From the NCBI GenBank assembly GCA_964016885.1, contig OZ024744.1, positions 37,138,001 to 37,202,000 of the forward strand: a stretch of 64,000 nt of DNA. Reading direction: 5' to 3'. Below the pieces are notes generated by a model, which saw nothing but the letters and a program-made list of their open reading frames with translations, did not search any database and had not been told where the DNA came from. Position numbers and translations under genes: made by a program. This DNA comes from Eledone cirrhosa. Taxonomy: Eukaryota. Below, piece after piece: positions 1,042-27,990 of the stretch (position 1 is its first letter; every line of letters begins with the position of its first letter).

Positions 1042-1306
1042 TTTCATTTATTGGCCACAAGGGCCGACATATAGGGGACACTACAAAAGACTGGGACAAT
1101 GGGGTTTTACAGAAAAATCGAGTAAACAATATGAATAACAATAACAAAGTAACAATAAAGTAACAATAACATTACAACAAGAAGATAATTCCCCAATAGG
1201 GGGAATGACCAACTTGGGTTCGCTCAGATACCCCACCAGTCCTGAACGAACCGACGCTTCGAGAGCACCCTGGAAGGGCACCCCTCTCCTCTTCAACTCT
1301 ACCTAC

Positions 1307-4300
1307 CTATAGCCACATGACCAGAGTAGGCCCACTCACACGGGCCATTCTAGCCACATTCACCCACCTTTCAGCAAATGTACTGGGGGGGGGGGGCAGC
1401 ACTTCTCTCTCAACCCTCACCGTCCTTTCCAAGTGAAACTTGAAAAAGTTGATGAGGGATTGGCCGAAGAGAAAAGTGTCTGTCTTCAGTCCTTTCAACC
1501 TCGTCCACCATACAAACTCTTTCGCTACTGCCACCAGACAGGAAAATTGCCTGCTCTTCCTGGCCAAAATAAGGCGGCGGGTCGATCTTCACTATGGACT
1601 CGGTCGATAGCCGGATCCGTTCTACACGCGACAACAGCTGTTCAACATAACTCCACAAGTCAGTAATGCACGGACACTGGAAGAGTGCGTGCAGAACGGT
1701 TTCGTCGCTCTGCGCGAATCTCGGGCAGGTCCATCTGACAGCACTTCCGTGTCTGTAGAGTTTATCTCGAACCGGCAGTGCCCCCCGGTAGCACTGCCAA
1801 GCGGGGGATTTTTTGAAATTATCCATCGTCCCCGCCTCGAAAGTCCTCCGGTACAGACTGATTAGTTCTACTTCGTTGACTCCCAGAGCCTCTCCGAGTG
1901 CGTCGACGCACTTGCCCACCAATAATCCTCTATAGAACTCGAGAGTGGAAGTTCCACTTACCACATTGCCCGCCTGGCAGAGGGCAGTGAGTCACTGGCA
2001 ACATTCCAAATGCCAGTCACCCAGTCTCGGTCTCTTCTTGACCCAGGACTGCAACTCAGTCAAAGAAACGAGCCGCGGAAAGGCCCGTCTGATAAACGGG
2101 GACCACACCTTTTCACCGTTTAGGCAGAATATCTGGAGATACCGCAGCCTCAGCGCATGCCTGCGCATCATTAGCCATGGCATGCCCAGCCCTCCACGTA
2201 GAGGGTGCTGGCAGCATATGGACCGCCTCACCAACGGAACCTGACCCCTCCACAAGAATTTGAAGAGGAGCCGCTCCAAGATAGCGAGGCGCGAACGAGG
2301 GCAAGGGACGACAGTCAGACGGTAGTAGATGACGGACGCGATGTACGCGTTCGCCACCTCCGCCCGACCTTTCAGTGATAGCTTCATCCCAGCCCATTTC
2401 TGGGTGAGACTGACTACCCTGCCCGTCACCTCGTCCCAATTCTTATCCACCTGGAGGTCTGGCCCGAACCAAACCACTAGCAACTTTACCGGTCCGTCCA
2501 GCGCCTAACGACGCTGTTGGACGGCATGGACTTGCCTCTCCATGTGCCGATCTGCAAGCCCACCGACTTTTCCGGGTTAAGTTTCGCTCCAGTCAACCTT
2601 TCATATTCCTCCAATAAGTTGCCGACCACCTCGGTTTCTGAGGTGTCCGACACCATCACGATGATGTCGTCCGCATAAGCCGACACAGCCTTTCCGCGTC
2701 CCGGTTCGAGCGGGATACCCTGCAACATCTCCAGCCTCCGCAGTAAAGGCTCGAGAGTCAATACGTATAGAAGGCAGGAGAGAGGGCACCCTTGACGGAC
2801 CGATCGGGAGACCGTAAACGGTTCCAAGAGGTGGCCATTAATTTTTCTATCGAGCAGGTGCCGCTGTGCATTGCAGCGATCCAGCTTCTGAAGACGGGCC
2901 GAAACCAGCCGCCTTGAGGACAGCCTCCAGGTACCGATGGTCGACCCTATCGAATGCTTTCGATTGATCTAAATTGATCAGAGCCCCACCGAAGCCAGGT
3001 TTACACCCTACCCTCTCTATGATGTATCGCATTAGGTGGAGGTTGTCGTGTATGGACCTGGTTTGGATTGCGCAAGTTTGCGCCTCCCCAAGCAAATCCC
3101 CGACGACAAGCGCCAACCTCTTTGCTAACACCCTGGCCAAAATCTTGAACTCTGTGTTGAGCAGAGTTATGGGCCTGAAATTGTCTAATATGTCCCTCTT
3201 GTTATCGTCTTTCCTTATCAGCGTCACTACGCCCCGGCTCACAGAACTGGGAATACTCCCGTTTTGCTGCCAGATGCAGTAGAAGGCTTCGAGGAGATTG
3301 GAGAACAAGTCTGGCATATTTACGTAAAGCTCGTAGGGCAGACCATCCAAACCGGGTGACTTGCGCCTCATGCAGTCGACAAGGGCATCCTGAATCTCGT
3401 CTTTCGCAGCGCCCAGCGTCAGCCGTCGAGAGTTGCGGCAAGCCATCGAGGTAGGGACTGAAGTCCGGCCAACATCTCTGACCCGCCACCTCCCCCGAAC
3501 AACCGAGCAAAATGTTTGCGAAAGGCCTCACACATCCGCTTGGAATCGCTCAGCTCTTGTCCGTCTCGGTCCATCAAAGACCGCCTCTGCCACGCGGGCC
3601 CATCGAACACCTTTAGTTCCCTCGTTTCTCAGAGCACGCGCCTTAGCTCTGACAATGCAACCTTCGTGTTTTGCATTGAAGAAATGGTCTAATGCCATGC
3701 TCGCCGCTAGCACGTCAGTTGCAATGCCACTACCAATAGCCTCATCTAACTTATCTACCAAATCCCACTCCTTTCTATTTTTCTCTAACGCTACTTCTTT
3801 GCTAAACTCTGTCGACATTACTCTAATCTCTCTTTTGAGAGCCCCCCACCATCTGTTGTTGATGATCCCTCCTGTCAACTTTTTCTTAACTAAATTGTTG
3901 ACCTGGTCCCTGTAAGCCTTACGTGCCGGAAATGACATGTTTAGCTTCCAGCAACCCGGTCCTAACCTACGCGTCTTATCTAGGTCGACCATACAGATCA
4001 CAAACGTCTGATCTGAATAGGCTACCGTTTCAAAACGTGGACAGCTTACACTATTTATATCTATTTTCCTAATGTATATCATGTCTATATACGATCTAGA
4101 TGACACTATGCGGTTAGCCCAGGACCACACTGGCGCAATAGGGAAATCTAGTCGGTACCTCTCAGACAGGTGGAACAGGCTCATCAGGTTCTTGAGGCTT
4201 TTGCACCACCCTGCTCCTATCGGCTACTCCGACACAGTCCCAACGTGCGCCTAAGCTGCCGTTCCAGTCCCCCGCTAAAGGGCGAAACATACCCAGAAAG

Positions 4301-4683
4301 GCTTCCAGGCGTCTAAAGAAAAACGGCCGTCCTGCCCTAGTAGGAGCATAGACGGCCATCAGTCTAAAGGCCCGACCTTCATTATTGTTCACGTCCAGGA
4401 CCACCAACTTCCCGTCCGGGTCCCGGAAGATCGACCTTTCCTCGAGATCCAGGCCTTTCCTAAACAGCACTGCCACCCTGTCTCCCATTCCCGATCGGCT
4501 AACAGATGCAAAGATCTGATAGTCGTCGAAAATGGGGGCTAGTGCGCGCGTGTCGGAAATCCTGGTCTCGCTGACGGCAATTACATGCATTTCTAGAGAC
4601 CTGAGGTTATTGAGCATGTGACCCTGCTTCCAGGACGATCCCAGGCCTCGAACATTTAAACATCCTACTCTTAATACGGCCAT
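1307..4683 (-). pseudogene. Tx1 copy B ORF2 (APE endonuclease, reverse transcriptase, zinc finger), frameshifted
   Basis: LNVRGL, AVSET, GDWN, KSPGLDGLPYE, NFRPITLLN, DQSKAFDRVDH, RQGCPLS, AYADD and CPR..ET..HALFQC motifs spread over several ORF-track fragments. Confidence 0.95.
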
Positions 4684-4715
4684 GTTGGCAGGTTAAAAAG
4701 AGAGAAAGGAAAGGT

Positions 4716-6709
4716 TTACTTACCTTCCGGGCGCTTGTGAAGGTCGGGTTGTTCGACCTCCATAGTTGGTGGGGTTTCTTTTGGGAACCTCTTTAAAATT
4801 CTTGAAGTTGGTTTTACGTTCGGGGTTCCCACGTCCCGAGGAAAGCTGTCTCGTATTTCTTTGAATATGTCGAGCGACATTCGCACCAGAACCAAATCTT
4901 CCGGCACGCGAAATGTGCTCGATTTAAAAATTTCCCCCTCTTTTTCTATATTTTCAATTCGTGGTACGAGGGCCATCAGTTCCTTGTTGGCCCTCCTGAC
5001 GAGCACGAAGTTTTGTATGTTTTGTTGGTGTGATTTTATTTGTTTGCGTGGTTGTGGTGGTGATGGTTTTGGTGGTGTTGTTTCGGTTTGATCTGTGATT
5101 GTTTGAGTGTGGTGTCTGTGATTTCAGATGTTTGTGTGTATATTTGTTCTTGCGTCTGTTTGGGTTGTTTGCGTTTGGGGGATTCCGGTGATGGTGATGG
5201 TGGTGTTAATGTTAGTGTTATTGGAGAGATGTTTGCGTGGGTGGTGTCTGCGCTTTTTATTGTGGGTGCTTTTGTGCTTTGTTGAGTTTCTTTTTTCTTT
5301 TTGTGTTGAGTTTTTTGTATTTTGGGGTATTTTGGTTTTCCCTCATTTTAACTAATGGTAGATGAGGGGTCTGTGCCTGTAAGTGTTTCTGTATGCATGT
5401 TTATGGTTTTATCAGTGTGTGTATTTTGGGGGGGAGGGGTAATTTGGCAGCTTTCCTCGTTTCCCCCCCTGGTTAGTCAATGTTGGTGGTGGTCTTTCTA
5501 TTGGTGTTGTTGTTGTTTGTTTTGCCGGTGCTGGTGCTGGTTGTGGTCCTCGCCCCGGCGTCGGCAACAATGGAGCCTTTCGACCCCTTGGCTCTTTCAG
5601 CAGTTAAGGGCACAATGCTCGCAAATGTGTTTTTTCCCAACAAACAAAACACTGCGGCCCTTTGCCTTCGGTCTTAATATGAATGACCGTCCCATTCTGA
5701 AGGCGGATGTGGTCCGGGATTGTCTTCACATTCTTGGACCTGATCTGGAAAAGGATCTCCAGACCAACCCCAGATGAGTCCTCTCTGGCCGTTCTGGTCA
5801 CTTCTATAGGGGCGGTATCCGTCCCCTCCACAATCACACATCCCAGAAGCCACCACATGTCAAGTCTTGGTGGGATTCTTGGAATGCGGAGACGGGCCGT
5901 TCTTTTTCCTAGGTGGGTGGTACATTATGACCTTGCTGGTTTTGCAAGGAGTCATACCATGTTTCATAGCGAGGGCGTCTGACTTGAACAACACCGAAAT
6001 GGTGCCGTACTGTCTGCCCCTATCTATGTACTGGGTGTCTTCTCTGATGCACCTCAGCGCGACTTCGACATCTTCTTGTGGGATTAAAGCTGTCCTTTTG
6101 GTTTGTTCTGAGATGCATCTATAATGCAACATTCTGCGTTCCACTGCTTCAATAGCTTCTACCGGTACAGTTAAGTTGGCCCAGGTTTGCTCTTGATTGA
6201 TGAGTTTCCATGCCTGGGCCAACTTTTCATCTTTGTTTGAAAGGTCCATGTTTGAAAGGTCTTTGCTTGAAGAGTCCATGGCCTCTTTTTTGCTGCTGCC
6301 GCAGCGAAAGTGTTCTTGTTTTCGTTGGCAGTGTTGTTGTCGTGGTCGTTGTTCTTGTTGGTGTTGTTGTTAGCACTGTCGCTGTTATCATTGTTGTCTT
6401 TGTTGCCACCGTTGTTCTCGGTGCAGTTGGTATTGTTGCTGTTGGTGTTGTCGCTATTGGTTTTCATGGTGTTGATATTGCTGTTGTATTTGATATTTTT
6501 TTTTTGTTATCTGTATTTTCGTTGTCGCTGTTACTGTCATTTTTTTCAAAATTAGTGTTCTTATTGGTATCATTGGTGTCTTTGTTTACCTTGTTTATGG
6601 TGGTGTTTGTGTTATCAATTTGTGTTAATTTCGCTGTAACGCTCCTCTCAACTTCTACGTCGTTGTCGCACGACAGCCGACATATCGCTGGGGGGCGTGG
6701 CTCAGCCAT
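4716..6709 (-). pseudogene. Tx1 copy B ORF1 (nucleic-acid binding, CCHC knuckle), frameshifted
   Basis: Lies upstream of ORF2. CFVCWEKTHLRALC knuckle. C-terminus MEVEQPDLHKRPEGK is similar to copies C and D. Confidence 0.85.
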
Positions 6710-6953
6710 GTTTTTTTTTGTCCGTAAATTTTTTAACATGTAAAAAAAAAGGTTCAAATATTTGTTCCAAAAGGCCCAAATATTATACTTTCCCCTTCAC
6801 AGGGCAAAGTCTAAGGGTTTATATCCCTTACACAACAATAAATATTTAACAACAAATAATTTTAACAGGCAAATAAAGCGACTTATTGGGAGCGAGTAAA
6901 ATACGTCCGATTAGACCAATAATAATAATTATAATTATAATAATAATAATAAT

Positions 6954-7102
6954 TGTTTCTACTTTTGGCACAAGCCAGCAATTAGTTCATTACTGGTACT
7001 TTATTTTATGAAAGGCAAAGTTAACCTCCGCAGGATTTGAACTCAGACCATAAAGGGACGTAACTCTTTGCTGCAAAGCATGGCGTCCGACCCTCAACCG
7101 AT
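6954..7102 (-). mobile_element. tRNA-derived SINE with Meta-like central domain and (ATT)n tail
   Basis: B-box GAGTTCAAATCC, TTTGCCTTTCAT..AAAGTACCAG domain, CTTGTGCCAAAAGTAGAAAC tail. Many copies in the window. Confidence 0.8.
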
Positions 7103-7109
7103 ATAATGC

Positions 7110-7290
7110 TTTCTTTATTAACCACAAGGGTTTACACAAAGTGAGACATTAAGGTCAGTATAGGACAATACAGGACGGTACAAATGGGCATTTCTGCGTG
7201 TAAAAAACACAAAAACAGGGGATGTAACAAAAAAAGGAACAATGGAAAATTCCCCAATAGGGGGGGGGGGTGTAATAATAATAATAACAA
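7110..7290 (-). mobile_element. 5'-truncated Tx1 3' UTR fragment
   Basis: CCCTATTGGGGAATT and CCCTTGTGG..AATAAAG motifs shared with the other Tx1 3' UTRs. Confidence 0.65.
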
Positions 7291-8418
7291 CTGAATGAAT
7301 AAACAAAACCAAAAAGAAGAAATAAATCTGTTGTTTGTGAATAGTTATAGTCTGCAAATGTGTGTGTGAATCTAGCTATGTGTCTTTGAATGTGCATCTG
7401 TGTGTATGCGAGTGTGAATGTCTTTATAAGTATGTAAATGTGTGTGAAGAGCGAAAGGAGATAGAAAATTCAAATGAATAAATTCGTGTGTATTTCTTTT
7501 ACTATTTTAATTATTATATTTTTTTATTTTTCTATCGCTGAAATAAGAGCAGAGTGCTATTATGCCGCAAGCTGAAAATCATAACAGACATCTTGTCTTG
7601 AAATTATTATACTATCTGGGCGTAGAATATTCATATTTCTGTTTATTTACTTATTTATTGATTTATATTTATTTTATTTAGTTGTAGGATTATAATAGAA
7701 GGATTAAAAGAGATTAACTTTCAATACATTAAACCTCTTTCACTTCCTGTGATTATTGTAACCTGTTTTCTTTACGAAATAAATTGTAAATAAATTTACA
7801 TGACTTAATTTTAAATTGTTCTATTTTTCGTTTATTTGTTTTACCATTATTATTATTATTATTATTATTATTTTTTTTTTTTTTTTGTATTCGTATGTAT
7901 TTCGTTATCTTGTTTCTGTTTTACTTTAAGTTATTGGTTGTTTCATCTGGCTAAGATCGAATTTGTGAAGAAGTGGAAATGTGAATGGCTTTCTTGTGTA
8001 TGTGTGTGTGTGTGCGTGCGTGTGTGTGTGTGTGTGTGTGTGCGTGTGAGTGTGTGTGTGTGTGTTATATTTCGTTTATTTACTTGATAATATAAACAAA
8101 GAGATGAATCATTGAACCATCTTTTAATAATAACAAACAACTTCCTTATGCTGAACAATGTAAAGAAAACCATTAAATATAACACGTAAAACCATAAGCT
8201 AAAATCATTTTGTAGATGTAATCACACCCTCACTTTACTTCCCTTTCATATTGTTACAGCTCCTTAAAGATGACAAAAAGAAGGAGCTTCACTGTCTTTT
8301 AAGGCGGACATGATGAAACCGAATATATAATATTTAAGGAACAATGGAAACTATATTCCTCATGCATGCTTGCACTTATTATATATAATGTGTGTGTATA
8401 TATATATATATATATATA

Positions 8419-8800
8419 GGAAAAAGTATGACCCCGATGGCGGAGCTCAAGCCGTTGCGACAGCTATTTCTGGATTCCAGAATAGTGTCCAGAAATAGCC
8501 GTCGCAACGGCTTGAACTCTGCCGTCGGGGGTCATACTTTTTCCTATTTCCCACTCTACTACCCTAAGTATTGAGTACCCTGGTGCGTTATGGTCCATCT
8601 GGTTCCTTACCACAGTTCCTTCGTTATATATATATATATATATGGACACTATTCTGGAGTCCAGAAATAGCTGTCGCAACGGCTTGAGCTCTGCCGTCGG
8701 GATCCTGAATCTTTTTCTATTACCCACTCTATAACCCGAAGTATCGAGTATTCTGGTGCATTATGGTCCACCTGGTTCCTTACCACACTTCCTTCGTTAT
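8419..8800 (+). repeat. Two copies of a short (TA)n-embedded element; the first has a 5' inverted arm of about 55 bp
   Basis: Inverted arms at about 8419-8474 and 8488-8544. Direct copy at 8643-8798. Related copies at 51497-51626 and 60878-61112. Confidence 0.75.
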
Positions 8801-9535
8801 ATATATATATATATATATATTTATGTGTGCGTGTGTGGTGTAATTGTGTATGGTGTAAGTGTGTGTGTCAGTGCGTGTGTGTGTATCTGTATGTGTCTGT
8901 GTGTTTGTGTGTGTGTGTATATACATATATATAAAGAGATAAAGATAGATAGGTAGATACACATATGTGTGTGAGAGTAGCTGTGTGTATGTGTGCGTTT
9001 GTGCATACGTACGTGTGTGTATGTGTGTATGTATGAAAGATAGAGAAAGAGAGGGAAGTTCTATACTATGATGTCAAATCCTAGTTCAAATCACGTTTAC
9101 AAAGCTGCCCTTAACCTTCAAACACAGATCAGACTCCTTTTCTTAAGCATGTTAAACCAAGCATAAATTTATCCCGTTTATCTTGTATATGCACACACAC
9201 ACACGCACACTCACACTCACCCCCCCCCCCCCCCCACACACACACACACACATACACACACACACACACATACCCATACACACACACACTCACACTCACC
9301 CACACTCATACACACACTCACACACACACACACACACACACACATGTACACACACTGATATAAATACGTGGGTAAACGGCAATGGACTTAGTAAACTCAT
9401 TTAATTGTAATAAGCTTTTTACATTCACCTGTTTCGGAGATTGTCGCCTCAACAGTTTTCCGTACATACTATGTACACATACATAGATACATACATATAC
9501 ATATACAAATACACACACATACATACATACATACA

Positions 9536-9566
<31 letters not shown>

Positions 9567-10539
9567 CCACTTACCATATAATTTGGATAGAAACCAAAAC
9601 CAAATCTATTCAATGTCAACTTCAATTTTCTGCCAAACCAATAACTTTCAGAAAGCTAATTTCTGAATGCTAACACGATGCCATTTCTGTTCAAATAGTT
9701 ACACCCATACATAAATTGTTCTTTCTATTTTCAGCTCAAGTGAATTCGTTCCAAAGATCAAGTATGGAATACAGAATTCGTAATGCCAATTGTAACGATA
9801 CTATTAAATACCTGCATTTCCTAATACCGGTAAAATTAACCCTGGAATATATTATTACTTTCATGTACTTTAAATTCTAATATTTTACAGATTCCTTAGA
9901 TTACACTGGTCAACAAAATTTTGCTTTTCTCTCCTGCTGAACCTAAGTTTGAGACCTGTTCTTGAGTAATTTGGGACCGATGAGTTTTAAAATGACAATA
10001 CTTTTTTTCTATCATGTCAATTTTTTTCTTGGCCAACAAGGAAGGTATACAAAATATCTGTGATTCCTGTGTTTATCGGTTAGCCAAGCGAAAGACAAAC
10101 ATCAAAACCTGATGAGTTAGGGGAGAAATGGATGCCATATTTGAAATCAGCCAGCACCTCAAAATTAGCTAAAAACTAAACCTAAGTCACCAAAAAGTGT
10201 GTTGATCAGTATTATCAATCACTAAGTGTTGCTAGATTCGTATCAAAACTAGATAATTGTATAGAAGTATAAAATGCATACAGACAACCAGAAAGTTTGC
10301 GAGGTAGAGAAATTGCTTGGTATATATATACAATGTTAAGATATTTTCTTTTACTCTTTTACCTGTTCCAGCCATCCACCTGAGACCATGCTGGGGCACC
10401 ATTAAATGTGTAACGATCACGTTTCTCAACAAAAACGCTAAATGGATCTTGCCGTATGGAGATCCAAAGAATTAGCACCACCTTAAAGTATGTACATTTT
10501 TCTACATATATTTTGCTCTATATATGTGTAGAGATGTCA

Positions 10540-10735
10540 ACATGAATGGACCTGTTATTTTTATCTAAAGACATTTTTTCCAATTCCAACCCACCTCACC
10601 CTCAATCTCTCTTATCTGATGAAGGACTAGCGTCAGAAACGTTAGGACCCTCTTCCTGCTATATCAAGAGTTAACCTAATATATCCCTTCCATATACTGT
10701 ACCGATTGTGTTGTTATTTCTGTTTACCTTTTGCT
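10540..10735 (+). mobile_element. Short PLE-terminal-repeat-like element with degenerate minimal hammerhead
   Basis: CTGATGAAGGACTAGCGTCAGAAACGTT. Homologous to the minus-strand copies at 15465-15675 and 50760-50970. Confidence 0.65.
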
Positions 10736-10759
10736 CACACACACACACACACACACACA

Positions 10760-10854
<95 letters not shown>

Positions 10855-10858
<4 letters not shown>

Positions 10859-11352
10859 AGTATATGTTGGTTGTTTACCGACACCTCAGTATGCAGGTTG
10901 GTTTGTTTACTCCGGAGTAATGTAAAGTAATTAAGTCAAATATGTAAAATTTGACTTCGTTTATTATAAATTATAGATATACTGCATATTTCTTTTGAGA
11001 AACACACACACATATATTTTGGTGCCAGCCATCATTGGCTGTGACCTCTTCAGGCAGTCCGAATTGGTGTGGGAAAGACAGGTACACATGTTGTTGAAGT
11101 GTGTTTTGCTCCGTCAATACATCGATATGTCCAACTCCTGGTTCAGTTGTTATTCATCTGAGGAACTGGAATCAGAAGAATAACAACTCAACCAGGAGCT
11201 GGACATATCGATGTATTGACGAAGCAAAACACACTTCAACAACATGTGTACCTCTCTTTCCCACACCAATTTGGACTGCCTGAAGAGGTCACAGCTAATA
11301 ATGGGTGTCACCGAAATATATGTGTGTGTGTGTTTCTCAAAAGAAATATGCT
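10855..11352. mobile_element. Fold-back PLE-terminal-repeat insertion with hammerhead motifs in both arms
   Basis: Inverted arms of about 170 bp around 11160. CTGAAGA-GGTCACAG..GTCACC-GAAA at 11280-11316. Same family as 48556-49390. Confidence 0.75.
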
Positions 11353-11369
11353 TTTTCTCCGCTCTATAT

Positions 11370-11640: not shown

Positions 11641-11767
11641 GACGTGCGTATGTCTGTACATATAAGTGTGTATGTATGTGTGTACATCTATGTGTGTGTA
11701 TGTATATACGTGCATGTATGTGTATGTGTGTGTGTATATATATATGCATGTATGTGTGAGTATTTGT

Positions 11768-11824
<57 letters not shown>

Positions 11825-16060: not shown

Positions 16061-16695
16061 CCCAATATTAAACAAACAAATCTTTATATTTCGCTGTATT
16101 TTAACATTACATTGGAAAATATCGTCAACAAACTTCTCCGATGATTTTATATCTTTAAAGATCCTTCCTCGTTGTAGGATTATATATGTTGAGGATATTG
16201 AAGTGCTGAGGAATCTAAACAGTCTTCAATCTTTTCGTCGCACTAATTACCACAAGAATATTACAGATATCACATTCGCAAGGATTAACTTATCGAGCTC
16301 GTGCTAAGTCTTAAGACCGTGGATAGCCACGTTGTGTGATCCTCTGTGTGTGAAAGGTAAGTGCTATCGTTTACTAAAGTAAACGATATCCTCATACCCA
16401 GTATGTAGTTAGAGATAGATAGAGAGAGATGGGGTGAGGGATCTATAGGTAATAGCTAGATATATAGATATATTTCTTTATTTACCATAAAGGCATAAAA
16501 TGAAGGGACAAATACAAAGGGGGAGTTTACATACAATCGAGTAAAAAGGGTATAAAATGAAAATAATCGAAAACAACCTCAAGGGGGGGGGGGGGGGCGT
16601 GATGGGGGTTGCATCCCCCCCCCCCCGAAAAAGTGTGCAATCCTTTGCCCGGGGAGCACATGGAGAAGGTGCTCCCCTCTCCTTCACTTCTTTAC

Positions 16696-19600
16696 CTACA
16701 GGATGGTATACAGAGAAGGCCCATTTACACGAGCCATTCTCGCCACTATCACCCACCTTTCATAAAACTGCCTGTGGCCAAGCACCTCTCTCTCCATTCT
16801 TATCCTTCTTCCGAAGTGATATCGGAAGAAGTAGACCAGACTATGGCCAGAGAGGAAGTTGCCTGACCTCAGACCTTTCAATCGTGTCCACCAAACAACC
16901 TCTTTCAACATGGCTATTACGCAGAGAAAAACCGCCTTTGCTTCCTTTGTGAAGAGGGGAGGTGGTTTGATTGTCATCACGGACTCGGCGGTCAATTGAA
17001 TCGGCGCCACCCGCGACAGCAGTCGTTCGGCGTAGCCCCACAATCAGCCACGCCCGGACATTGTACCAATGCGTGCGCAACGGTTTCTTCGTGACGCACG
17101 CATCTAGGGCAAATCTTTTTCGAGGGATCCCTGCCCGGGCGCCCGTGTCTGTAGAGCCTCTCTCGAACGGGTAGAGCCCCTCGGCAGCACTGCCAGGCTA
17201 GTGACTTCTGAAAGTTGTCCATTGGTCCCGGGCCGAAAGTCCTACCGAACAGGCTGGCCAGTTCGTCCTCTTCCATGTCCAGCGACTCTCCAAGGGTGTC
17301 ATCGCCCCTGCTAGCCACCAGCCCTCTATAGAATGATGAGGTGGATTCTCCACCGATGGCCTGTCCCGCTTGCCAGAGAGCCCTGAGCGCCTGAGCACAC
17401 TCAGTGTGACAGTCTCCCAGTTTTCCGGATCTTTGCTTGACCCAGGACTGCAACTCGGTGAGCGAGACGAGTCTCGGAAAGGAACGTTTCACGAACAGAG
17501 CCCATACCGGTTGACCAGTGAGGAATACCTGTAGGTGCCGTAGCCTTAATGCGTGCCTAAGCATCATCAACCACGGCATCCCCAGCCCTCCTTTCGAAGG
17601 TTGTTGGCAGCAGATGGATCTTCTCACCATAGGAGGGCGCTTCTTCCAAAGAAATTGGAAGAGCATGCGTTCCATGGTGGTGAGTGTTTCCTTAGGGCAA
17701 GGCACGACAGTCAGGCGGTAGTAAGTGACGGACGCTATGTAAATGTTCGCCACCTCCGTCCGGCCTTTTAGGGACAGCTTACACTTGGCCCATTTCTGGG
17801 TTAGTGCAAACACCTTGTTCGTAACCTCGTCCCAGTTCTTTTCCACCTGACCCCAAGCAACTTTACCGGGCCCTCCGTCCAGTCTCCGACGACACCGTCG
17901 GGAGGCATCGGTCTGCCGCTCCACGTTCCGAGTTGCAGCCCGATGGATTTTTCCCGGTTCAGTTTCGCTCCTGACAATCTTTCGTAATCCTCCAGTAAGG
18001 TACCGATCGCCTCGATCTCCGAGTCGGTCGATACCATTACTGTTACGTCATCGGCGCAGGCCGACACCGCTTTGCTCAATCCTGGTTCCAGGGGGATACT
18101 CTGCAACAACTCTAACTTCCTCATTAAAGGCTCGAGAGTCATACGTACAGAAGGGAGGAGAGAGGGCACCCCTGTCGAATGGATCGTGTGATTTCGAACT
18201 GCTTCGAAAGGTAGCCGTTCACCTTGATCCTAGAACAGATGTGGTTGCTATGTAAGGCAGTGATCCAGCCTCTGAAAACAGGACCGAACCCAGCCGCCGC
18301 TAGCACTGCATCCAGGTACACATGGTCGACCCTAACGAAGGCCTTAGACTGATCCAAGTTGAGCAGGCCCCACCGAAGCCGAGTTTGTTGCCAACCCTCT
18401 CTATGATGTATCGCATGAGGTGGAGGTTATCGTGAATGGACCTGGATGGGATAGCACATGTCTGTGCATCTCTCACCAGGCTACCCACGACAAGCGCCAA
18501 CCTCTTTGCTAACACCTTGGCCAAAATCTTTAACTCTGTGTTTAGCAGGGTTATGGGCCGAAAATTATTTATACTATCCCCCTTGTTCTCGTCCTTCCTC
18601 ACCAGCGAGACTACGCCCTTGGCTACAGAACAAGGAATTCTCCCGTTCTGCTGCCAATTGCAATAGACCGCTTCGAGGAGTTCGGAGAAGAAGACCGGCA
18701 TTGCTAAATAAAGTTCGTAAGGTATACCATCGAGACTTGGAGATTTGCGTCTGGTGCATTGGCTCAGCGCATCTCCGATCTCATCAGCCGAGATTGGTCC
18801 CTCGCAGGACTCTGCCTCTTCGCTCGAGAGACGCGGCAGGCCGTCGAGGTATGGACAGAAATCCACGTCCCCGCCCGGACCCTCGCCTCCCCCGAATAAT
18901 CGGACAAAGTGCCTTTGAAAGGCCTCGCACATCTGCTTAGGCTCCCGGATCACCCGTCCATCCTCGTCTTACAACGACCGGATGGTGGATCGATTTCCAC
19001 TCTTAGCTTCTGTCACGCGGGCCCAGCCAACGGCTTTGGCCCCCTCATTACCTAGAGCACGTATTTTACTTCGAATGACGCAGCCTTCGTGCTTTACATC
19101 GAAAAACTGGTTCAAGGCCGTCCTCGATGCCAGCACTCTGGCCACATCTTCGCTCTTGATTGCCTCTTCTAATTTACCTGTTAATTCTTTCTCGTTTCTA
19201 TTCCTATCGGCAGCTAACATCTTGCTATAACTTATTGATTCTGTTCTAATCTCTCTTTTGAGAGATGCCCACCATCGGTTGTTGACGTTTGCACCCGTCA
19301 ACCTCTCCTTAACTAATCTGCTAATCCGGTTTCTGTACGTCTCTTTTGCCGGTAAAGACAAATTAAGTTTCCAGTAACAGGGACCCTGTTTATGTGTTTT
19401 CTCGAGATTGACTACGCAGGTCACTAATTTGTGATCCGTATAGCCAACCATGCGCATTTCTGGACAGCTTAATATGTCCCTATCCTTACTTCTAACTAAG
19501 AATCTATCTAAGTACGATCTAGATTGACCACTGTGGTTTCTCCAAGTCCAGGTAGGCACAGTTGGAAAATCTAGTCGATATCTATCGACCAAGTTAAAAC

Positions 19601-20109
19601 GGTCGTTAACCCCTTGAGGCTGTTACACCCCCTCTATTAGGGCATGCTCCTGCATAGTCCCAACGTGCATCTAGGATGTCATTCCAATCCCCCGCTAGAA
19701 GCAGGGAACGCGACGTTCCCAGAAATGTCTCCAAACGCTGGAAGAAGTAGGGCCGTTCAGCTCCGAAAGGGGAGTAGGCGGCGACCAGTCTCAAGGCCGC
19801 ACCTTCACTACTGCAAACGTCTAGCACCAACAAACGACCCTCCGGGTCCGAGTGAACAACCTGTACGGCAAGACCCAGGTGTTTTTGCAGCAGTACGACA
19901 ACCCCACCTCCACCTCCAGGTTGACAGAGAGATGCATGCACCTCAAAGTCATCGAAGGTAGGGGCCAGCTACCGCACGACGCTGATCCGAGTCTCACAGA
20001 TAACCATTACATTTATACCACATGACCTGAGGTCATTTAGAAGCTTTGCTTAATTCCAAGTTGAGCCCAGGCCACGTGCATTCAAACATCCTACTCTTAA
20101 CACATCCAT
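16696..20109 (-). pseudogene. Tx1 copy C ORF2, frameshifted
   Basis: APE motifs (GDWN, SYLDRFL, TDH), RT motifs (NFRPITLLN, RQGCPLS, CADD) and CPRC..ET..HALVQC. Confidence 0.95.
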
Positions 20110-20142
20110 GTGGGAGGCAGTGCCAAAGGAGAGTGTAGAGAC

Positions 20143-21903
20143 CTACCTTTCTGCTTCCTGGGGTTCGGGTCGCACGACTTCCATGGGGTCGGGGGTGTTG
20201 GGTGAAGGGGTGTCTTGTGGTGGTGTGGGGTCGTCAGTGGGTGGTGGGGTTGGGGTGTTTGGAGTTGTGTTGGGGAGGGGAAGGGGAGGGGGAAAGCTTT
20301 TTAGTAGGACGCGGTTTATGGCTTTGACAGAGGGTGGTCCCACGTCCTCCTTAAAATCCTTTTTTAGTTTTTGGTAGAGGTTCATTGGGATCTTTATTAA
20401 TTTTAAATGTGGGTAGTTTTCTGAAGAAACAAAGTTTACACCTTCGGTTTGTACCGAAGGATTATTGTTTATGAGTTCATTTAATTTATTATTGTTTCTG
20501 TTGATGTAAGTATAGTGTAATGTCTTTTTTTCGGATGGTGTGAGTGTTTCGAAGAGGGGAGGGGCAGGTTTGGTTTTGTTTGTTGCTGGAGGGGTGTTTT
20601 GTGTTTTGTTGGATTGTGTTGACATTTGGGTGGGGGTTGTTTGGCCTTGTGTGTTTTGCACATGTTTTCTTTTTTTCCTTTTAATCTGTCTGAAGGACTC
20701 CGTTTCTTCCTCCGAATTCGTTGGGTTATCTTCAGTGTTGGAGGGAAGAGGTATGTTTGCTGGTAATGTTTCCGTGTTGGTTTTCTTTGTGGGGGAGATG
20801 GATGTCACTATGTTAGACTGTGTTGTGTGTTGTGGCTGCGGTGGTTGTGTTGTTTTATTGAGTGAGGGGTTGGGTGGGCCTGTATTTTGTTTTGGGGTAA
20901 TGTGTTGTGACTGTTTGTGTTGTGGTGGTGGTGTAGTTTTACTGAGGGACGGGTTGGGTGGGACTGAGTTTTGTTGTTTGTTTATATGTTGTGGTGGTGG
21001 TGGTGGAGCTGGTGTTGGTAGCAGGGTTTTCTTTTTGTTGAGTTGGGGACAAGCGGCCCTCAGGTGCCCTTTTCCTGCACAGATATGACAGGACGGCCTT
21101 CTCCCCTCCACGCTAATGTTTATATACCCGTGGCCCTCTAATAGGATTCTGTCGGGTATTTGGGCGATGTGTTCAGGCTTCATTTGCACTACAAGTTCTA
21201 TACCTGTTCCACTGAACGCATTGCCTGTGGTTTTCCCATTGGAAATCACGTTGTCATTCACTGGATCGATGAAGCCAGCTATGAGCCAGCAGTAGTCCAC
21301 ATCTGGCATCATTGCATCCAGCCTTATGCGTTGAGTTCTTTTATCCATATAAGATGGATAAAAGGTAAAATTTTTCGAACGAATCGGTGACAAAGCACAT
21401 TTTTTTGCCGCCGATTCGTTCTTCATAATAATCGCTAGGCTTCCATACAGTCTGTCTTTTCTTATGAAAGTGGTTTCATTAAGTACTTCTGTAAGTACTG
21501 TTTTGATTTCTGTTTGAGTTGGCTGTTCAGGTTTTTTTGAAATCTTGTTGATGGTGCGGAAAACGACCGTTCGACTTTCAATGTCTTTGGTGAGTTCTTG
21601 AGGCATTTTTACCGATAAAATACCATTCTCTCCTTCAGTTATATATTGTTTGGCGTCTGCAATTCTTTGTGCCACATCTGAAATATTTTCAGGTATATAT
21701 GTCAAAGATTTATTTGTTGTTTGTGCAAATGAAATATCATTGGTGTTGACTTTGTCGTCTGCTTTGCTTTCTGTTATGATGTTGTTTTCAAATGTTATTT
21801 TTGTGTTTGTCGTATCTTTGCTTGTGGTATTAATATTGTCATGCAATTTTTCAAATTTTTTTTTCGTTGTTGGAATCCATGTCCAGATTTGTGTTTTCGT
21901 CAT
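20143..21903 (-). CDS. Tx1 copy C ORF1, 586 aa open (true start probably further upstream)
   Basis: CHICAGKGHLRAAC knuckle, Pro/Thr/Gln-rich linker, IKRKKRK basic patch, directly upstream of ORF2. Confidence 0.85.
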   Translation of the reverse strand: MTKTQIWTWIPTTKKKFEKLHDNINTTSKDTTNTKITFENNIITESKADDKVNTNDISFAQTTNKSLTYIPENISDVAQRIADAKQYITEGENGILSVKMPQELTKDIESRTVVFRTINKISKKPEQPTQTEIKTVLTEVLNETTFIRKDRLYGSLAIIMKNESAAKKCALSPIRSKNFTFYPSYMDKRTQRIRLDAMMPDVDYCWLIAGFIDPVNDNVISNGKTTGNAFSGTGIELVVQMKPEHIAQIPDRILLEGHGYINISVEGRRPSCHICAGKGHLRAACPQLNKKKTLLPTPAPPPPPQHINKQQNSVPPNPSLSKTTPPPQHKQSQHITPKQNTGPPNPSLNKTTQPPQPQHTTQSNIVTSISPTKKTNTETLPANIPLPSNTEDNPTNSEEETESFRQIKRKKRKHVQNTQGQTTPTQMSTQSNKTQNTPPATNKTKPAPPLFETLTPSEKKTLHYTYINRNNNKLNELINNNPSVQTEGVNFVSSENYPHLKLIKIPMNLYQKLKKDFKEDVGPPSVKAINRVLLKSFPPPLPLPNTTPNTPTPPPTDDPTPPQDTPSPNTPDPMEVVRPEPQEAER

Positions 21904-22310
21904 TTTTCTCCGCAGATTCGTCTGTTTTTTTGTTTTTTTTCCTTCCTTCTCTATGACGTTAGTTGCGAAGGAAGGGGGGACTAAAGCGTGCGAGCTTACA
22001 ACTCTTACCGCTGTCCCCCCCCCCCACCACTATTTTCGTTAGCTTCGTTTAACATTTCTGTCAGACGATTGAAATTTGTTATGCCACAAAATTTTTTAAA
22101 AACAGGTTTTTCACCCCTAGGAGGGGTAAAGATGAGCTGACCCACCGCCTGACAGTTCAGACGGGGGGTCAAGCTACACAATAGTATCAAAATTAAAATT
22201 GAACTTACAAAATTTCCGCAATAAATTTGAACAAAACTTCTGCGCGAAGTGAATTACATCTACGCTGTAGAACAGACGACAGCTAGATTTATAGCTAGAT
22301 AGATAGATAG

Positions 22311-22526
22311 ATTTCTTTATTAGCCACAAGGGCGCAACAAGAAAGGGGACAATACAAAGACATGCCGGGGATTTTACATACAGTCGTGTAAAAAATATAA
22401 AAACAAACAATTTCAACAATCGAAATCCCCAATAGGGGGGGAGGCGCCACAAATGGGTTGTTTAATACCCCGTCGATAGAACAACCCTCAACTCAAGGAG
22501 CGTGTTGTGCAAGTGCTCCTTTCTTC
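22311..22526 (-). mobile_element. Tx1 3' UTR-only insertion between (GATA)n runs
   Basis: CCCTATTGGGGATT and CCCTTGTGGCTAATAAAGAAAT motifs. Confidence 0.8.

Positions 22527-22583
<57 letters not shown>
22527..22583. repeat. (GATA)n microsatellite
   Basis: Perfect run between Tx1 copies. Confidence 0.95.
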
Positions 22584-22584
<1 letters not shown>

Positions 22585-22788
22585 TGTTTCTTTTATTTGC
22601 CACCAGGGCATCAAAAGTGGGACAAGTACAATGGGGGGAGTTTACAAAACAAGGCGTCCTCAATAAGGAGGAGGCAATAACAATATATAAAAATAAAATA
22701 AAATATAACAAAAAATAAAATTCATAACAAAGTCCTTTTCTCAGGAGCACAGAGAATGGGTGCTCCCTTGGTCTTTCATCTTCCTCAC

Positions 22789-25700
22789 CTATAGTCTGAT
22801 GTAGAGTGAAGGCCCATTCACACGGGCCATTCTCGCCACTTTCACCCATCTTTCATAAAAACGGCTGGGGTGCAGCACTCTCTCTCCATCCTGATCCTTC
22901 TTCCGAAATGATATCGGAAGAAACGGACCAGTTGTTGGCCAGAGAGAAAGGTGTCTGACCTCAGTCCTTTCAGACGCGTCCACCATACAACCTCTTTCGT
23001 CATGGCTATTACGCACAGAAACAACGCCTCTTCTTCGTTTTTGAAGAGGGGAGGCGGCTTGATCGTTACAATAGACTCGGTGGTCAACCGGATCGGTCCC
23101 ACCCTTGACAGCAGTTGTTCGACATAGCCCCACAGATCGGCAATTCCCGAGCAGTGTACCAATGCGTGTGCAACGGTTTCCTCGTCGCACACGCATCTGG
23201 GACAGATCTTTTTCGAGGGGTCCCTACCCGGGCGCCCGTGTCTGTAGAGCCTTTCTCGAACGGGCAGAGCCCTTCTGTAGCATTGCCAGGCCAGGGACCT
23301 CTGGAAGTTATCCATGGGTCCTGGGCTGAATGTCCTACCGAACAGGTTGGCCAGTTCGTCTTCCTCCATGCCTAGGGTTTCTCCGAGGGCGTCGTCGCAC
23401 CTGCTAACCACCAGCCTTCTATAGAATGACGAGGTGGATTCTCCACTGACAGCCGGGTCCGCCTGCCAGAGAGCCGTGAGCGCCTGGGCACACTCGGTGT
23501 GCCAGGTGCCCAGTTTTCTCGGTCTTTGCTTGACCCAGGATTGCAGCTCGGTGAGTGAGACGAGTCTGGGAAAGGCTCGCCTCACAAACGGGGCCCACAC
23601 CGGTTGACCGGAGAGGAATACCTGAAGGTGCCGTAGCTTTAATGCGTGTTTACGTATCATTAGCCACGGCATCCCCAGCCCTCCTTTCGAAGGGTGTTGA
23701 CAGCACATGGATCTCCTCACCATAGGAGCCCGCTTCTTCCAAAGGAATTGGAAGAGTGCGCGCTCCATTTTGGCGAGCGTTTCCCTTGGGCAAGGCACAA
23801 CGATCAGGCGGTAGTGGATGACGGACGCTATATAAGTGTTCGCCACCTCTACCCGACCTTTCAGGGACAGTTTGCACTCGGCCCACTTCTGGGTCAGTGC
23901 AAACACCCTGTTCGTTACCTCACCCCAGTTCTTCTCCACCCGGAGGTCTGGTGCGAACCAGACCCCGGGCAACTTCACGAGGCCCTCCGTCCAGCGCCCG
24001 ACGTCGCCATCGGAGGGCATCGATCTACCCCTCCACGTGCCGAGTTGAAGACCGATCGACTTGTCCCGGTTCAGCTTAGCCCCTGTAAACCTTTCGTACT
24101 CCTCCAGTAAGGTGCCGATCGCCCCGATTTCCGAGGCCGTCGACACTATTACTGTTACGTCATCGGCGTAGGCTGACGCCGCTTTCCGCAATCCCGGTTC
24201 CAACGGGATGCCCTGCAACAACTCCAACTTCCGCAGCAGTGGCTCTAGAGTCACTACATACAGAAGGGAGGAGAGAGGGCGCCCCTGTCGGATGGACCGC
24301 GCGATTTCGAACGGCTCCGAGAGGTAGCCGTTCACCTTGACCCTAGAGCAGATGCGGCTGCTGTGCATGGCATTGATCCAGCCCTTGAAAAGGGGTCCGA
24401 AGCCAGCCGCCGCTAGCACCGCATCCAGGTAACCATGGTCGACCCTATCGAATGCCTTAGATTGATCAAAGTTGATCAGGGCCCCACCAAAGCCGGGTTC
24501 GTTCCCAACCCTCTCTATGATGTATCGCATGAGGTGGAGGTTGTCATGGATGGACCTGGACGGGATAGCACATGTCTGCGCATCTCCCACCAGGTTACCT
24601 ACGACAAGCGCCAACCTCTTTGCTAGCACCTTGGCTGTAACTCTGTATTTAGCAGAGTTATGGGCCTGAAATTATTTATATCGTCCCCCTTGTTCTCGTC
24701 CTTCCTCTCTAGCGTGACTATGCCCTTGGTCACAGCACAGGAAATTCTCCCGTTCTGTTGCCAGTTGCAGTAGACCGCCTCGAGGAGATCGGGGAACAAG
24801 TCCGGCATAGCTAGATATAGTTCGTATGGAAGACCATCGAGACCCGGGGATTTGCGTTTGCCGCATTGGCTCAGCACGTCCTCTATCTCAGCGGCTGAAA
24901 TCGGCTCCTCGCAGGACTTCGCCTCCCTGACCGAGAGACGCGACAGGCCGTCGAGGTATGGACCGAAGTCCACATCTCCAACCGGCTCCCCGCCCCTTCC
25001 GAACAATCCCGCAAAGTGCTTTTGAAAAGCCTCGCACATCTGCTTAGGTTCAAGGATCAGCCGTCCATCCTGGTCTCGCAAAGACCGGATAGTGGATCTG
25101 CTCCCTCTTTTGGCTTCTGTCACGCGGGCCCAGCTAACAGCTTTGGTCCCCTCGTTTCCCAGAGCACGTATTTTGCTTCGGAAGATGCAGCCTTCGTGTT
25201 TCGCGTCGAAGAACTGGCCCAGGGCCGTTCTCGACGCTAGCACTCTGGCCACGTCGCCGCTTCTAATTGCCTCTTCTACATTATCTACAACTCCCTTTCC
25301 TTCCTATTTCTATTGGAGGCTAACTCCTTACTAAATTCTATAGAGACTACTCTAATCTCTCTTTTAAGAGATCCCCACCACCTGCTGTTGACGATGGCGC
25401 TCGTCAACCGCTCCTTAACTAAAGTGCTAATCCGGTCCCCGTAAGCCTTACTTGCCGGTAAGGACAAGTTAGCTTCCAGTAACCGGGTCGCTGTCTATGA
25501 GTTCTGTCAAGGTTGACAATGCAGGTCACTAACTTGTGGTCTGAATAGCCAACCATGCGCATTTTTGGACAACTTAAAAAGTCATTATCCTTAATTCTAA
25601 CTAAGAACCTATCTAGGTACTACCTAGATGATCCGCTACGATTTGCCCAAGTCCAGGTTGGCGCAGTCGGAAAATCTAGTCGATATCTATCGGCCAGGTC

Positions 25701-26217
25701 AAATCGACCGATTAACCCTTTGAAGCTATTACACCCCTCTCTATCGGGACAGGCCTCTACGTAGTCCCAGCGTGCATCTAGGATACCATTCCAGTCCCCC
25801 ACTAATAGCAAAGAGCGGGACGTCCCTAGAAAAGTCTCCAGACGAAGGAAGAAGTGTGGCCGCATTGACCCGAAAGGGCCGTAGGCGGCTAACAACCTAA
25901 ACGCTCCGCCTTTACCACTGCCAAGGTCCAGAACCACTAGTCGACCCTCCGGGTCCAAACGGACCATCTGTGTTGCGAGACCCAGATGTTTTTTGCAGAA
26001 GAACGACAACCCCACCCCCACCTCCGGGCTGACAGAAAGATGCGTGCATCTCAAAGTCATCAAAGGTGGCGGCCAGCTGTTGCACGTTGCTGATCCGGGC
26101 CTCGCAAATAACCATCACATCTATATGTTGTGACCTGAGGTCATTTAGAAGCATTGCTTGCTTCCAAGTTGAACCCAGGCCAAGCACATTTAAACAGCCT
26201 ACTCTTAGCATGGCCAT
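22789..26217 (-). pseudogene. Tx1 copy D ORF2, frameshifted
   Basis: MAMLRVGCLNV start, GDWN, DQSKAFDRVDH, AYADD, CPRC motifs. Confidence 0.95.
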
Positions 26218-26241
26218 GTTGGTGGTGAAGAGAAAAGGCAC

Positions 26242-27990
26242 TTACCTCTCTGCGTCCCGGGTATCGGGCTGCACAATTTCCATTAGGGTGGGGGATGGGT
26301 TGTTGGGTGGGGTGGTGGTTTGTGGAGGTGTAGGGGCATCAGTGTGTTGTGTGGTTGGGGAGTTTGAGTTGTGTGGGTGTTTGGGGAGGGGGTGGGATAG
26401 TTTTTTAGGAGGACGCGGTTAATGGGCCCGACGCAGGGGGGACCCACGTCCTCTTTAAAGTTGTTTTTTTAAAGTTTTATAGGTGTCCTGTGGGGCCTTA
26501 ATCATTTTGAGGTGGGGAAATCCCCTGCCTGGGTGAAGTTAGGCCCTTGGGTTTTTATTAGATTGTTGTTGTACACAATGTTTAACAGTTTTTTTGTTTC
26601 TTGTGTTTATGTATGTGTATGCATGTTTTTTTTTTTGAGTGGTGTTTTTTGTTTGCTGTTGTTGTGAGCTCTTTTGTGTTGGTGTCAGTGCTATGTTTTG
26701 GGGAGGGGTTGTTTTCATTTGTGTGTCTGAGGTGTGTTTTCTTTTTTTTCTTTTGATTGTGTGGAAGTGCTCCTCCTCGTCTGACGACGAACTAGTGTCA
26801 TCTTCCGCGTTGGAGGGGAGGGGTATATTTTCGGGTTGTGTTTGCGGTGCGGGTTTTTGGAAATTGTTTTTTTTTTAGTGTGTGTGTGGGGGGGGGGGTT
26901 GGACATTGTTTTGTTTTGGTTTGAGCTGTGGTGGTTGTTTTTGTAGTGGTAGTTGTGGTGATTGTGTTGGTTGTGCAGTTGTTGGTGGTGTAGGCAGGAT
27001 TGGGGTTTTCTTATTGAGTTGGCGACAAACAGCCCTCAGGTGACATCTGGTTCCGCAGAGGTAACACGAGAGCCGCCTACCCTCAACGGTAATGTTGATG
27101 AAAGTTTGATCATCCAGTATGACGCGTTCAGGGATCTGGGCGATCCTTTCGGGCCTCATTTGAACTACAAGTTCGAGGCTCGTTCCACTGAACACGTCAC
27201 CCGATGCATTTCCCATGGACACCAGCGTGCCATCATCCAGGTCCAGGAAACCTGTCAAAACCCACCATATGTCCATAATCGGCAGGATGGTGTGGATTTT
27301 TATTTTTTGTGTTCTTCTACCCATGTACGTAGGGTAGAAGGTGTATGCGGTGGATGTGATTGGTTAGATGGACAGTTTCACTGCTGTATCCCTGTCCTTC
27401 ATGAGAATGGATAGACTCCCGTAGAGTCTATCCTTCTGAATGAAGGTGATGTCCTTCATGACGTCTTTCAAAACCAGTCTGTGATGGTGGAGCTGGTTTT
27501 TTGCTTTTATTCGAGATTGTCCTAAACATGACAGTGTTTAGGAGTCTCTGGCTTTTTAGTTCCGGGGGGGGGGGGGGGGTGGATCGTGAATGAACTATTT
27601 TCCCCGTACACTATATATTTTTTGACATCTGCCAGTAGCTCCTTCACTTTGGTTATATCTACTGGCAGATAGTCGAGGGTTTTCCTTGCCGTCTCGGCGA
27701 AGGAGAATTTTTTTTTGTTTGTGTTGCTGTTGTAGTTGGTGGTGTTGTTGTTATCATTGTTGTTGCTATCACAGTTATTGGGGTTGTTGTTGTTAGTGGT
27801 GTCCGTCGCATTGTTGTTGTTGTTGCTGTTGCTGGTGCCGCTGGTTCTTTGGTTTGTTGCCATGGCAACGTCAGGTTGTCGGTCAACAGGTGGAGAAAAT
27901 CCTTCCTCTGGCTGACCTTTCTTTTTGACCTCTGCTACTGTGACAGTGGAAGGGGGAAGCTGTAAGCTTATCTTCCCCTTTCCTCCTTCG
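26242..27990 (-). pseudogene. Tx1 copy D ORF1, frameshifted
   Basis: Homologous to copy C ORF1 (ELVVQM.PE.IAQIP.R, knuckle). Ends MEIVQPDTRDAER*. Confidence 0.8.

Follow-up and report, generated by a model that had tools for sequence, protein, structure and literature searches.

The particles of long interspersed elements (LINEs) require far more of the protein of the first open reading frame (ORF1p) than of the second (ORF2p), and the usual account of this ratio is inefficient re-initiation on one bicistronic RNA. Among retrotransposons with long terminal repeats (LTRs), copia and the plant Ty1/copia elements EVD and BARE1 are described, in the accessible portions of PMC5580714 and PMC3735527, as setting the structural-to-enzyme ratio with a subgenomic gag RNA made by splicing; the intron of copia, of about 3 kb, spans the whole POL region, and in BARE the RNA for translation and the RNA for copying form distinct pools. 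Here we analyse LINEs of apparent Tx1 type in a stretch of Eledone cirrhosa DNA (OZ024744.1 37,138,001-37,202,000, assembly GCA_964016885.1; this whole stretch of 64,000 nt is called the window, and all coordinates are positions within it). Conservation of a splice donor where ORF1 ends makes it very likely that this site is under selection for binding U1, and it may serve to remove ORF2 from part of the transcripts.

As in copia, EVD and BARE1, a conserved U1-type donor is found in these LINEs at the end of the structural gene, and in those LTR systems U1 has a second role, as far as the portions consulted describe it. The LTR elements differ in having a single gag-pol ORF, in which the splice is needed to stop Gag, whereas the LINE ORF1 has a stop of its own; the LINE, unlike them, has a predicted helix across the whole intron, and its splice is proposed from sequence. 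Among LINEs, human L1 likewise has functional splice sites that alter the ORF content of the transcript (SpIREs, PMC5860796; SpORF2, PMC2896524). In the parts of these sources available, its donors lie in the 5' untranslated region (UTR), the 5' UTR or ORF1 is removed with ORF2 left, and spliced copies occur in the genome; in the octopod elements, by contrast, ORF2 would be the part removed, and our searches found no spliced copies. HAL1 also has an ORF1-only product with the element 3' end, but it is described in the available part of PMC5753468 as a non-autonomous genomic family, whereas the octopod ORF1-only form would be RNA only, no precise genomic version having been found. An earlier sequence-only reading of the window knew of no such design in a LINE, and we too found no report of ORF2 removal by splicing in the literature covered, from which subscription papers, Repbase reports and supplements were largely absent.

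Three full-length copies from three different subfamilies, B, C and D, lie in the window. All three carry a broken ORF2, and the splice signals therefore count at the level of the family and not of the single copy. Their parts are the following.

1040..6917, minus strand: copy B, full-length L1/Tx1-type LINE, ORFs broken, flanked by (ATT)n runs
4718..4726, minus strand: donor of copy B, AAG/GTAAGT, GT at 4723-4722, ORF1 phase 1; ORF1 stop TAA at 4718-4716
4681..4723, minus strand: spacer of copy B, with donor, pyrimidine run and CCAACATG, ORF2 ATG at 4683-4681; predicted 5' strand of the helix
1307..4683, minus strand: ORF2 of copy B, frameshifted; APE, RT (reverse transcriptase) and zf-RVT domains, identified on intact relatives
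4723-1307, minus strand: proposed intron of copy B, 3,417 nt
1263..1312, minus strand: ORF2 stop and candidate acceptor of copy B, CTATAG/G, AG ending at 1307, with a phase-1 stop downstream; purine-rich, predicted 3' strand of the helix
16460..22200, minus strand: copy C, full-length, with 628 open codons in ORF1 (22029-20143); ORF2 broken, AATAAA and then a TATC-like run
20107..20149, minus strand: donor AAG/GTAGGT and spacer of copy C, GT at 20146-20145, phase 2; ORF1 stop TAG at 20145-20143, ORF2 ATG at 20109-20107
16652..16701, minus strand: ORF2 stop and candidate acceptor of copy C, CTGTAG/GTAA, AG ending at 16696; purine-rich strand; proposed intron 3,451 nt
22590..27998, minus strand: copy D, full-length, both ORFs frameshifted, then (TATC)n at 22584-22527
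26215..26248, minus strand: donor GAG/GTAAGT and spacer of copy D, GT at 26245-26244, phase 2; ORF1 stop TAA at 26244-26242, ORF2 ATG at 26217-26215
22745..22798, minus strand: ORF2 end of copy D, CAG/ACTATAG/GTGA, candidate acceptor AGs ending at 22796 and 22789; purine-rich strand; proposed intron 3,457 nt

The sequence-only reading had placed ORF2 inside an intron whose removal rebuilds the ORF1 stop, and the six junction strings on which it relied are present at the places it gave on the minus strand. The donors stand at 4723 in B, 20146 in C and 26245 in D, and the ORF2 stop is TAG followed by G in each copy (B, CTATAG/GTAGGTAG, 1307; C, CTGTAG/GTAA, 16696; D, CTATAG/GTGA, 22789). Joined, they end as described, in AER and a stop in C and D and in PEGR and a stop in B. 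The difference in phase is also real: B is in phase 1 (the frame is open for 133 codons in the window copy and for 406-640 in relatives), C in phase 2 with 627 open codons before the donor, and D in phase 2 with 264 in a relative. One correction applies to D, where a CAG lying 7 nt upstream of the TAG outscores it (rank 9 against 26 of 261) and would yield AERL and a stop.

For the family-level comparison, 120 stretches around the listed matches were fetched, and the 59 elements that retain both ends formed 13 groups, whose ORF2s are 70-94% identical where compared. The family columns exclude L205 and L206 (likely chimeric) as well as L128 and L156 (no ORF1 end), and ORF1 phases were assigned from the longest open frame and a conserved ME motif. 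A donor GT(A/G)(A/G)GT was found at the ORF1 end in every group having an undamaged copy, in phase 1 in B, B2, E and F, in phase 2 in C, D, G, E2, P and H, where it contains TAA, TAG or TGA, and in phase 0 in Y. Scored with a weight matrix not trained on host introns, as were all splice sites here, it ranks first in 9 and second in 4 of the 13 representatives, among 233-331 GT sites. Five donor positions are invariant in all 9 multi-copy families, against only 69 of 267 fourfold sites in ORF2. The donor is kept in 30 of 30 C loci, and GTAAGT in 19 of 20 B-type loci (both sets were picked by similarity and lean toward agreement) and in 98 of 100 D/G places among the matches listed. Since GGTRRGT occurs only 2-4 times per element of 5.4-5.9 kb, yet is present at the ORF1 end in each subfamily with an intact copy, its placement there exceeds chance.

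A profile of homologues led to more distant relatives, whose arrays lie in a genome record labelled as bacterial; tandem arrays of eukaryote-type LINEs in such a record are likely host contamination. In family Z (L262-L297; ORF2 40.8% identical to that of L140, an intact relative), all 32 distinct copies read TAA G/GTAAGT, with the donor one base past the ORF1 stop and 13 nt before the ORF2 ATG, and it is the top-scoring donor in 6 of the 7 copies scored. It is in part because this family, 41% identical in ORF2, keeps the donor one base after its ORF1 stop that we consider the site very likely to be selected for U1. The site is old yet not universal, being present in one of two close families: family W2 (L260, L261; 39.6%) has a TAATG overlap of the two ORFs and no donor at the ORF1 end, and L298 (27% identical to the search query) lacks the donor as well. 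In family Z another donor lies close to the ORF2 stop, together with AGs with pyrimidine tracts at about +50 and at +240 to +277 of the 3' UTR, and the 3' UTR of W2 contains a donor (+40) and a strong acceptor (+183). Donor-acceptor pairs are thus retained in the 3' UTR of both, from +40 to +183 in W2 and from +14 to about +50 or about +250 in Z.

It might be argued that the donor is an inherited accident, a motif made by Arg or Gly-Lys codons and a stop, with no function. The subfamilies do share ancestry, as their ORF2 identities attest, and in B2, B4, H and F Gly-Lys codons some 300 nt into ORF2 create a donor of equal quality. This internal look-alike, however, has been lost in the other families, while the donor at the ORF1 end persists through three phases and three stop codons and in family Z lies outside any codon; we regard such an accident as very improbable. 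A donor that is used, but joined elsewhere, seems to us improbable too, if less so: it could close a mini-intron of 42-62 nt fusing ORF1 to ORF2 in frame, or reach an acceptor within ORF2 or deeper in the 3' UTR. An in-frame AG does lie 42-62 nt past the donor in 11 of 13 representatives, a pyrimidine tract with AG precedes the ORF2 ATG in E, E2 and B4, and internal AGs near -630 and -950 outscore the terminal AG in several families. Yet AAGAGTAG supplies AGs in both phases, which makes such a match cheap, and P and Y have none; the introns of D and G would measure 42 nt. A fused RNA would moreover encode ORF2 and be copied in cis, yet none of the 88 junctions in hand is fused, and in family Z fusion is impossible because the ORF1 stop precedes the donor, so that ORF1 stays whole after any splice. 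A fusion intron is disfavoured on these last two grounds.

The acceptor is less certain than the donor. CT(A/G)TAG closes ORF2 in all groups except H, which has a fixed TAA, and an AG stands at the ORF2 end, or 7 nt before it, in all subfamilies but one. In C it is kept in 29 of 30 loci and ranks third of 256 AGs, and in 8 of 11 representatives the terminal acceptor ranks between 1 and 7 of about 260. Conservation of both sites, as the sequence-only reading would expect, holds for the donor, across subfamilies and in family Z, and less well for the acceptor, whose AG is lost in H. With a join at TAG, B, B2, F, E, C, D and Y would each reach a stop after no more than 3 residues; among them, as in B, the ORF1 terminus would change in E (EAKG against EAKGE), B2 (PEGW against PEGK) and F (HDQD against HDQGK). 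Such a stop follows the terminal TAG in 7 of 10 cases in phase and 5 of 20 off phase (Fisher test, p = 0.024), in a tally made by hand from the phase table (one off-phase row of E2 was read by eye) that excludes B3 and B4, which are single damaged copies, and H, which has no AG. The AG 7 nt upstream gives SL and a stop in phase 2 in P, E2 and G; if it is allowed, the figures become 10 of 10 and 10 of 20 (Fisher test, p = 0.006). Two changes follow the phase: E, nested among phase-2 families on the tree, shifted to phase 1 and fits GT TGA, and the C/D lineage dropped one base after TAG and fits phase 2, so that there are perhaps two or three independent events. The rebuilding of the ORF1 stop proposed earlier thus extends to most subfamilies, including the nested phase-1 E, and fails at TAG in G, E2 and P and in H with its TAA. 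A tandem stop guarding against read-through of ORF2 was rejected as an explanation, as the conserved TGA is out of the ORF2 frame.

A further feature, which the sequence-only reading had missed, is a predicted long-range helix between the spacer (from donor to ORF2 ATG) and the 50 nt starting just before the ORF2 stop; it offers another reason for the retention of TAG/G and TGA. Cognate strands pair with a mean of -32.2 kcal/mol against -26.6 kcal/mol for non-cognate strands, a value that none of 20,000 permutations reaches, and in 9 of 16 copies no other stretch of the element pairs better than the cognate strand. In copy B the predicted pairing (-33.5 kcal/mol) is the best of 557 windows and is equalled in 3 of 200 shuffles. 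The helix is imperfect, of 25-40 bp, and would turn ORF2 into a single loop, the donor marking one end and TAG/G the other. Taken in a fixed register, it sets the last G of the ORF2 stop and the base that follows against the CC of CCAACATG, and position +2 is T-A, T.G or C-G. In H, P, F and Y the predicted pairing takes in the donor itself, as it does weakly in B, C, D, E and G. Folds of ORF2-only fragments, in which end effects favour it, formed the helix in 7 of 9 cases. In family Z the ORF1 end and donor are predicted to pair with the ORF2 end, as best partner in 6 of 7 copies (0-2 of 200 shuffles, in a window chosen afterwards), and L269 has one two-sided change; in W2 the pairing is absent (156 of 200 shuffles). 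Donor and helix thus co-occur in Z and are both missing in W2. A local hairpin is also seen early in the 3' UTR (16680-16650, 22765-22735 and 1285-1255, minus strand; GGGGAGCAC...GTGCTCCCC in C, for example). Because it overlaps the strand that would pair with the donor, hairpin and long-range helix may be mutually exclusive.

Two readings join the donor to these features. The first, which we hold to be the best although we are evenly divided on it, is that ORF2 is spliced out under control of the helix to give an ORF1-only mRNA, copia-style, in a LINE. A fuller version is more tentative, and we think it slightly more likely to fail than to stand: the whole of ORF2 would be a retained spliceosomal intron, its ends clamped by a co-evolving long-range helix that acts as a switch between ORF1-only mRNA and unspliced, copied RNA, a design common to the relative 41% identical in ORF2, whose sister family with the TAATG overlap lacks both donor and helix.

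Several observations weigh against these readings. In B, D and F the terminal acceptor comes only 26th to 38th among about 260 AGs (28 of 260 in B); a join at TAG would add 28-79 residues in P, E2 and G, and the rescue by the upstream AG depends on AAG or GAG in P and G; kinship of the subfamilies makes the Fisher values overstate independence. In H the fixed TAA comes with a spacer altered alongside, as pairing rather than splicing would predict, and no excess of synonymous conservation was found at the ORF2 end. As for the helix, it is weak in the window copies C (48 of 200 shuffles) and D (12 of 200), the strands of copy D rank last of 13 as partners and form the weakest helix among the 13 representatives, the fragment folds of window copies C and D lack it, and it appeared in none of three full-length folds. 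The predicted helix could regulate a splice, or could by itself conserve TAG/G and TGA with no splicing at all.

The last possibility underlies the main rival, in which the U1-binding element acts without a splice, by protecting RNA from early polyadenylation or by retaining incomplete RNAs in the nucleus, while the helix brings the ORF2 start to its stop for translation or particle assembly and TAG/G and TGA are by-products of pairing. TAG/G does pair with the CC of the spacer in most families, H has altered both sides, and the helix could account for GTG/CAC and for the change of TGA to TGG in G. Motifs resembling donors persist in the 5' UTR as well and, in the distant relatives, past ORF2; AATAAA or ATTAAA hexamers lie inside ORF1 in 12 of 13 representatives; a role of U1 independent of splicing has been shown for EVD, in the accessible part of PMC5580714; and no spliced genomic copies were found. 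The rival does not, on the other hand, predict the phase-matched stops, nor that C and Y, which lack the upstream AG, keep a stop after TAG while G, which has that AG, has lost it, nor a donor exactly at the ORF1 end in two lineages with ORF2s 40.8% identical. A free consensus donor with acceptors downstream is, besides, usually used. We think this rival unlikely, though well short of negligible.

Spliced products were sought in the genome, in contigs of sequencing runs and among proteins. Five gapped-pattern genome searches for the junctions of C, D, G, E, E2, B and B2 returned no spliced copy; exact patterns miss diverged copies, and the junctions of F, H, P and Y lay outside the searched set. 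A control pattern of the same kind found 1,208 unspliced D/G donors. Copies with the ORF1 end joined exactly to the 3' UTR, which the sequence-only reading had named as a mark of such splicing, are thus missing, which counts against an abundant, freely mobilised spliced RNA and must be added to the objections listed above; the cis preference of L1, as described in the available part of PMC5860796, softens this argument. Contigs were used for presence only, and differences in depth between the two ORFs were disregarded. Those from four runs of unrecorded type, all of one study, were compared with the C copy and showed no joint of 16695 to 20147 among the best 15 of 98 matches, and one X4 contig spans the C acceptor unbroken; X4 contigs compared with a G-family copy and part of an E-type copy showed no donor-acceptor joint among the best 15 of 30. 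Protein searches for ORF1 ends with spliced tails gave no match at E<=0.001. Of the earlier proposal that ORF2 lies in an intron, then, the conserved, frame-independent donor and the phase-matched short stop of most subfamilies stood, whereas the splice itself stays a proposal. L047 lacks 3.06 kb of ORF2 with donor, spacer and ORF2 end kept, the deletion not being at the splice sites, and L208 and L212 of the F family have large internal ORF2 deletions that also do not use them.

An intron-shaped segment of 60 nt in the 5' UTR (CA/GTAAGT, T-rich, AAG/G) is present in 23 of 23 B/F/H-type copies, 20 of them with GTAAGT, and is internally deleted in two copies. In the window it lies as follows.

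6886-6827, minus strand: 5' UTR intron-shaped segment of copy B, also present in copies A and F; in A and B the GT is changed to AT

As this segment is retained, genomic copies seem to derive from unspliced RNA, which also softens the objection drawn from the missing spliced copies.

If clamp-regulated splicing does operate, U1 would load at the ORF1-end donor during transcription of ORF2, and with the appearance of the 3' strand a competition would begin between commitment to the spliceosome and formation of the helix. In RNA that remains full-length the helix would hide the splice sites. Spliced RNA would give ORF1p only, without a tail of 3.7 kb past the stop, and unspliced, clamped RNA would give ORF2p and serve as the sole template for copying; spliced genomic copies would then be missing because unspliced RNA alone is copied. 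A LINE would in that case have reached the solution of copia independently, by splicing out ORF2, and would illustrate a way for an intron to persist in an element propagated through its own RNA, the helix being a concrete switch open to mutation. If the main rival holds instead, conservation of a U1 site and of a helix spanning ORF2 across 60% protein divergence is still undescribed for LINEs in the literature found.

The features of the elements suit a LINE of Tx1 type, a label based on architecture and not on a tree with named references. In L140, ORF1 measures 642 aa and has a CCHC knuckle, and ORF2, about 1,140 aa long, carries APE, RT and zf-RVT domains; the ORF2s of L140 and L112 were matched by Pfam Exo_endo_phos, RVT_1 and zf-RVT, and the closest solved structure to ORF2 is L1 ORF2p (E 5e-57), against 3e-22 for R2. 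In ORF1 a CX2CX4HX4C motif is present and look-alikes in the Atlas (0.89-0.92) carry zf-CCHC, ZCCHC3 RNA-binding or RRM families, while Pfam matched none of three ORF1s; a Type I ORF1 combines RRM and CCHC knuckle, according to the available part of PMC5203782. Among 59 copies the 3' end is (TATC)n in 34, (ATT)n in 2 and other in 21, and 2 had no poly(A) signal found; the elements thus show a preference for microsatellite targets, as does the Tx1 clade. Two ORFs, an APE endonuclease and a 3' end of AATAAA and microsatellite were found, in place of the LTRs, integrase and single gag-pol ORF of Ty1/copia. The microsatellite-targeting Tx1 LINEs Kibi, Koshi and crocodilian Tx1 (PMC4494074) and the L1-Tx1 of Octopus vulgaris (PMC13282606) share the APE-RT-zf-RVT ORF2, the CCHC-knuckle ORF1 and microsatellite 3' ends, and differ in target from the (TATC)n or (ATT)n used here; the accessible portions of both papers describe no splice sites or helix for Tx1, and "splic" and "intron" have no match in the main text of PMC13282606. 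The nearest named protein relative is from Argonauta hians (71%), and no named Tx1 reference was among the 120 homologues listed. Rfam and viral scans gave no match, and a metagenome scan gave three short, distant fragments only. A 29-nt pattern from the ORF2 end occurs at 10,509 places in the host genome, which is of 3.0 Gb and rich in microsatellites.

Family Y (L150, L171-L184, L258, L259) is young, its copies being 98-99% alike. Its ORF1 crosses the donor in phase 0 and ends at a TAG overlapping the ORF2 start, which reads ATA in 15 of 15 top-scoring loci; ORF2 of this family would therefore depend on a non-AUG start codon, on frameshifting or on help supplied in trans.

The remaining copies in the window are partial, with only a 3' fragment of E and only 5' parts of A and F.

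Right behind copy B: copy A, 5' part only, cut by the window edge
28086..28550, minus strand: copy E, 5'-truncated 3' end; its TAT is a copy-specific change from the family TAG/GTTGA
57480..59220, minus strand: copy F, 5' UTR and most of ORF1 only; donor and acceptor are present in its family

The sequence-only reading had listed E and F as exceptions, correctly for the window copies, the one having TAT and the other being cut short, but not for their families, which read CTGTAG/GTTGAGG in E and CAAG/GTAAGT with CTGTAG/ACTGA in F. The elements are arranged as head-to-tail arrays at microsatellites, and 3' UTR scraps of other subfamilies are stacked between or before full copies (22526-22310 and 7290-7110, minus strand). 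Elsewhere in the window, 42600-48140 holds reverse transcriptase pieces, presumably Penelope-like, with inverted repeats of 300-530 bp at 94-95% identity, and 35338-37233 on the plus strand is an open frame of 631 codons. At 61348-64000 a unit of about 591 bp forms direct and inverted repeats of 99-100% identity that run past the window end.

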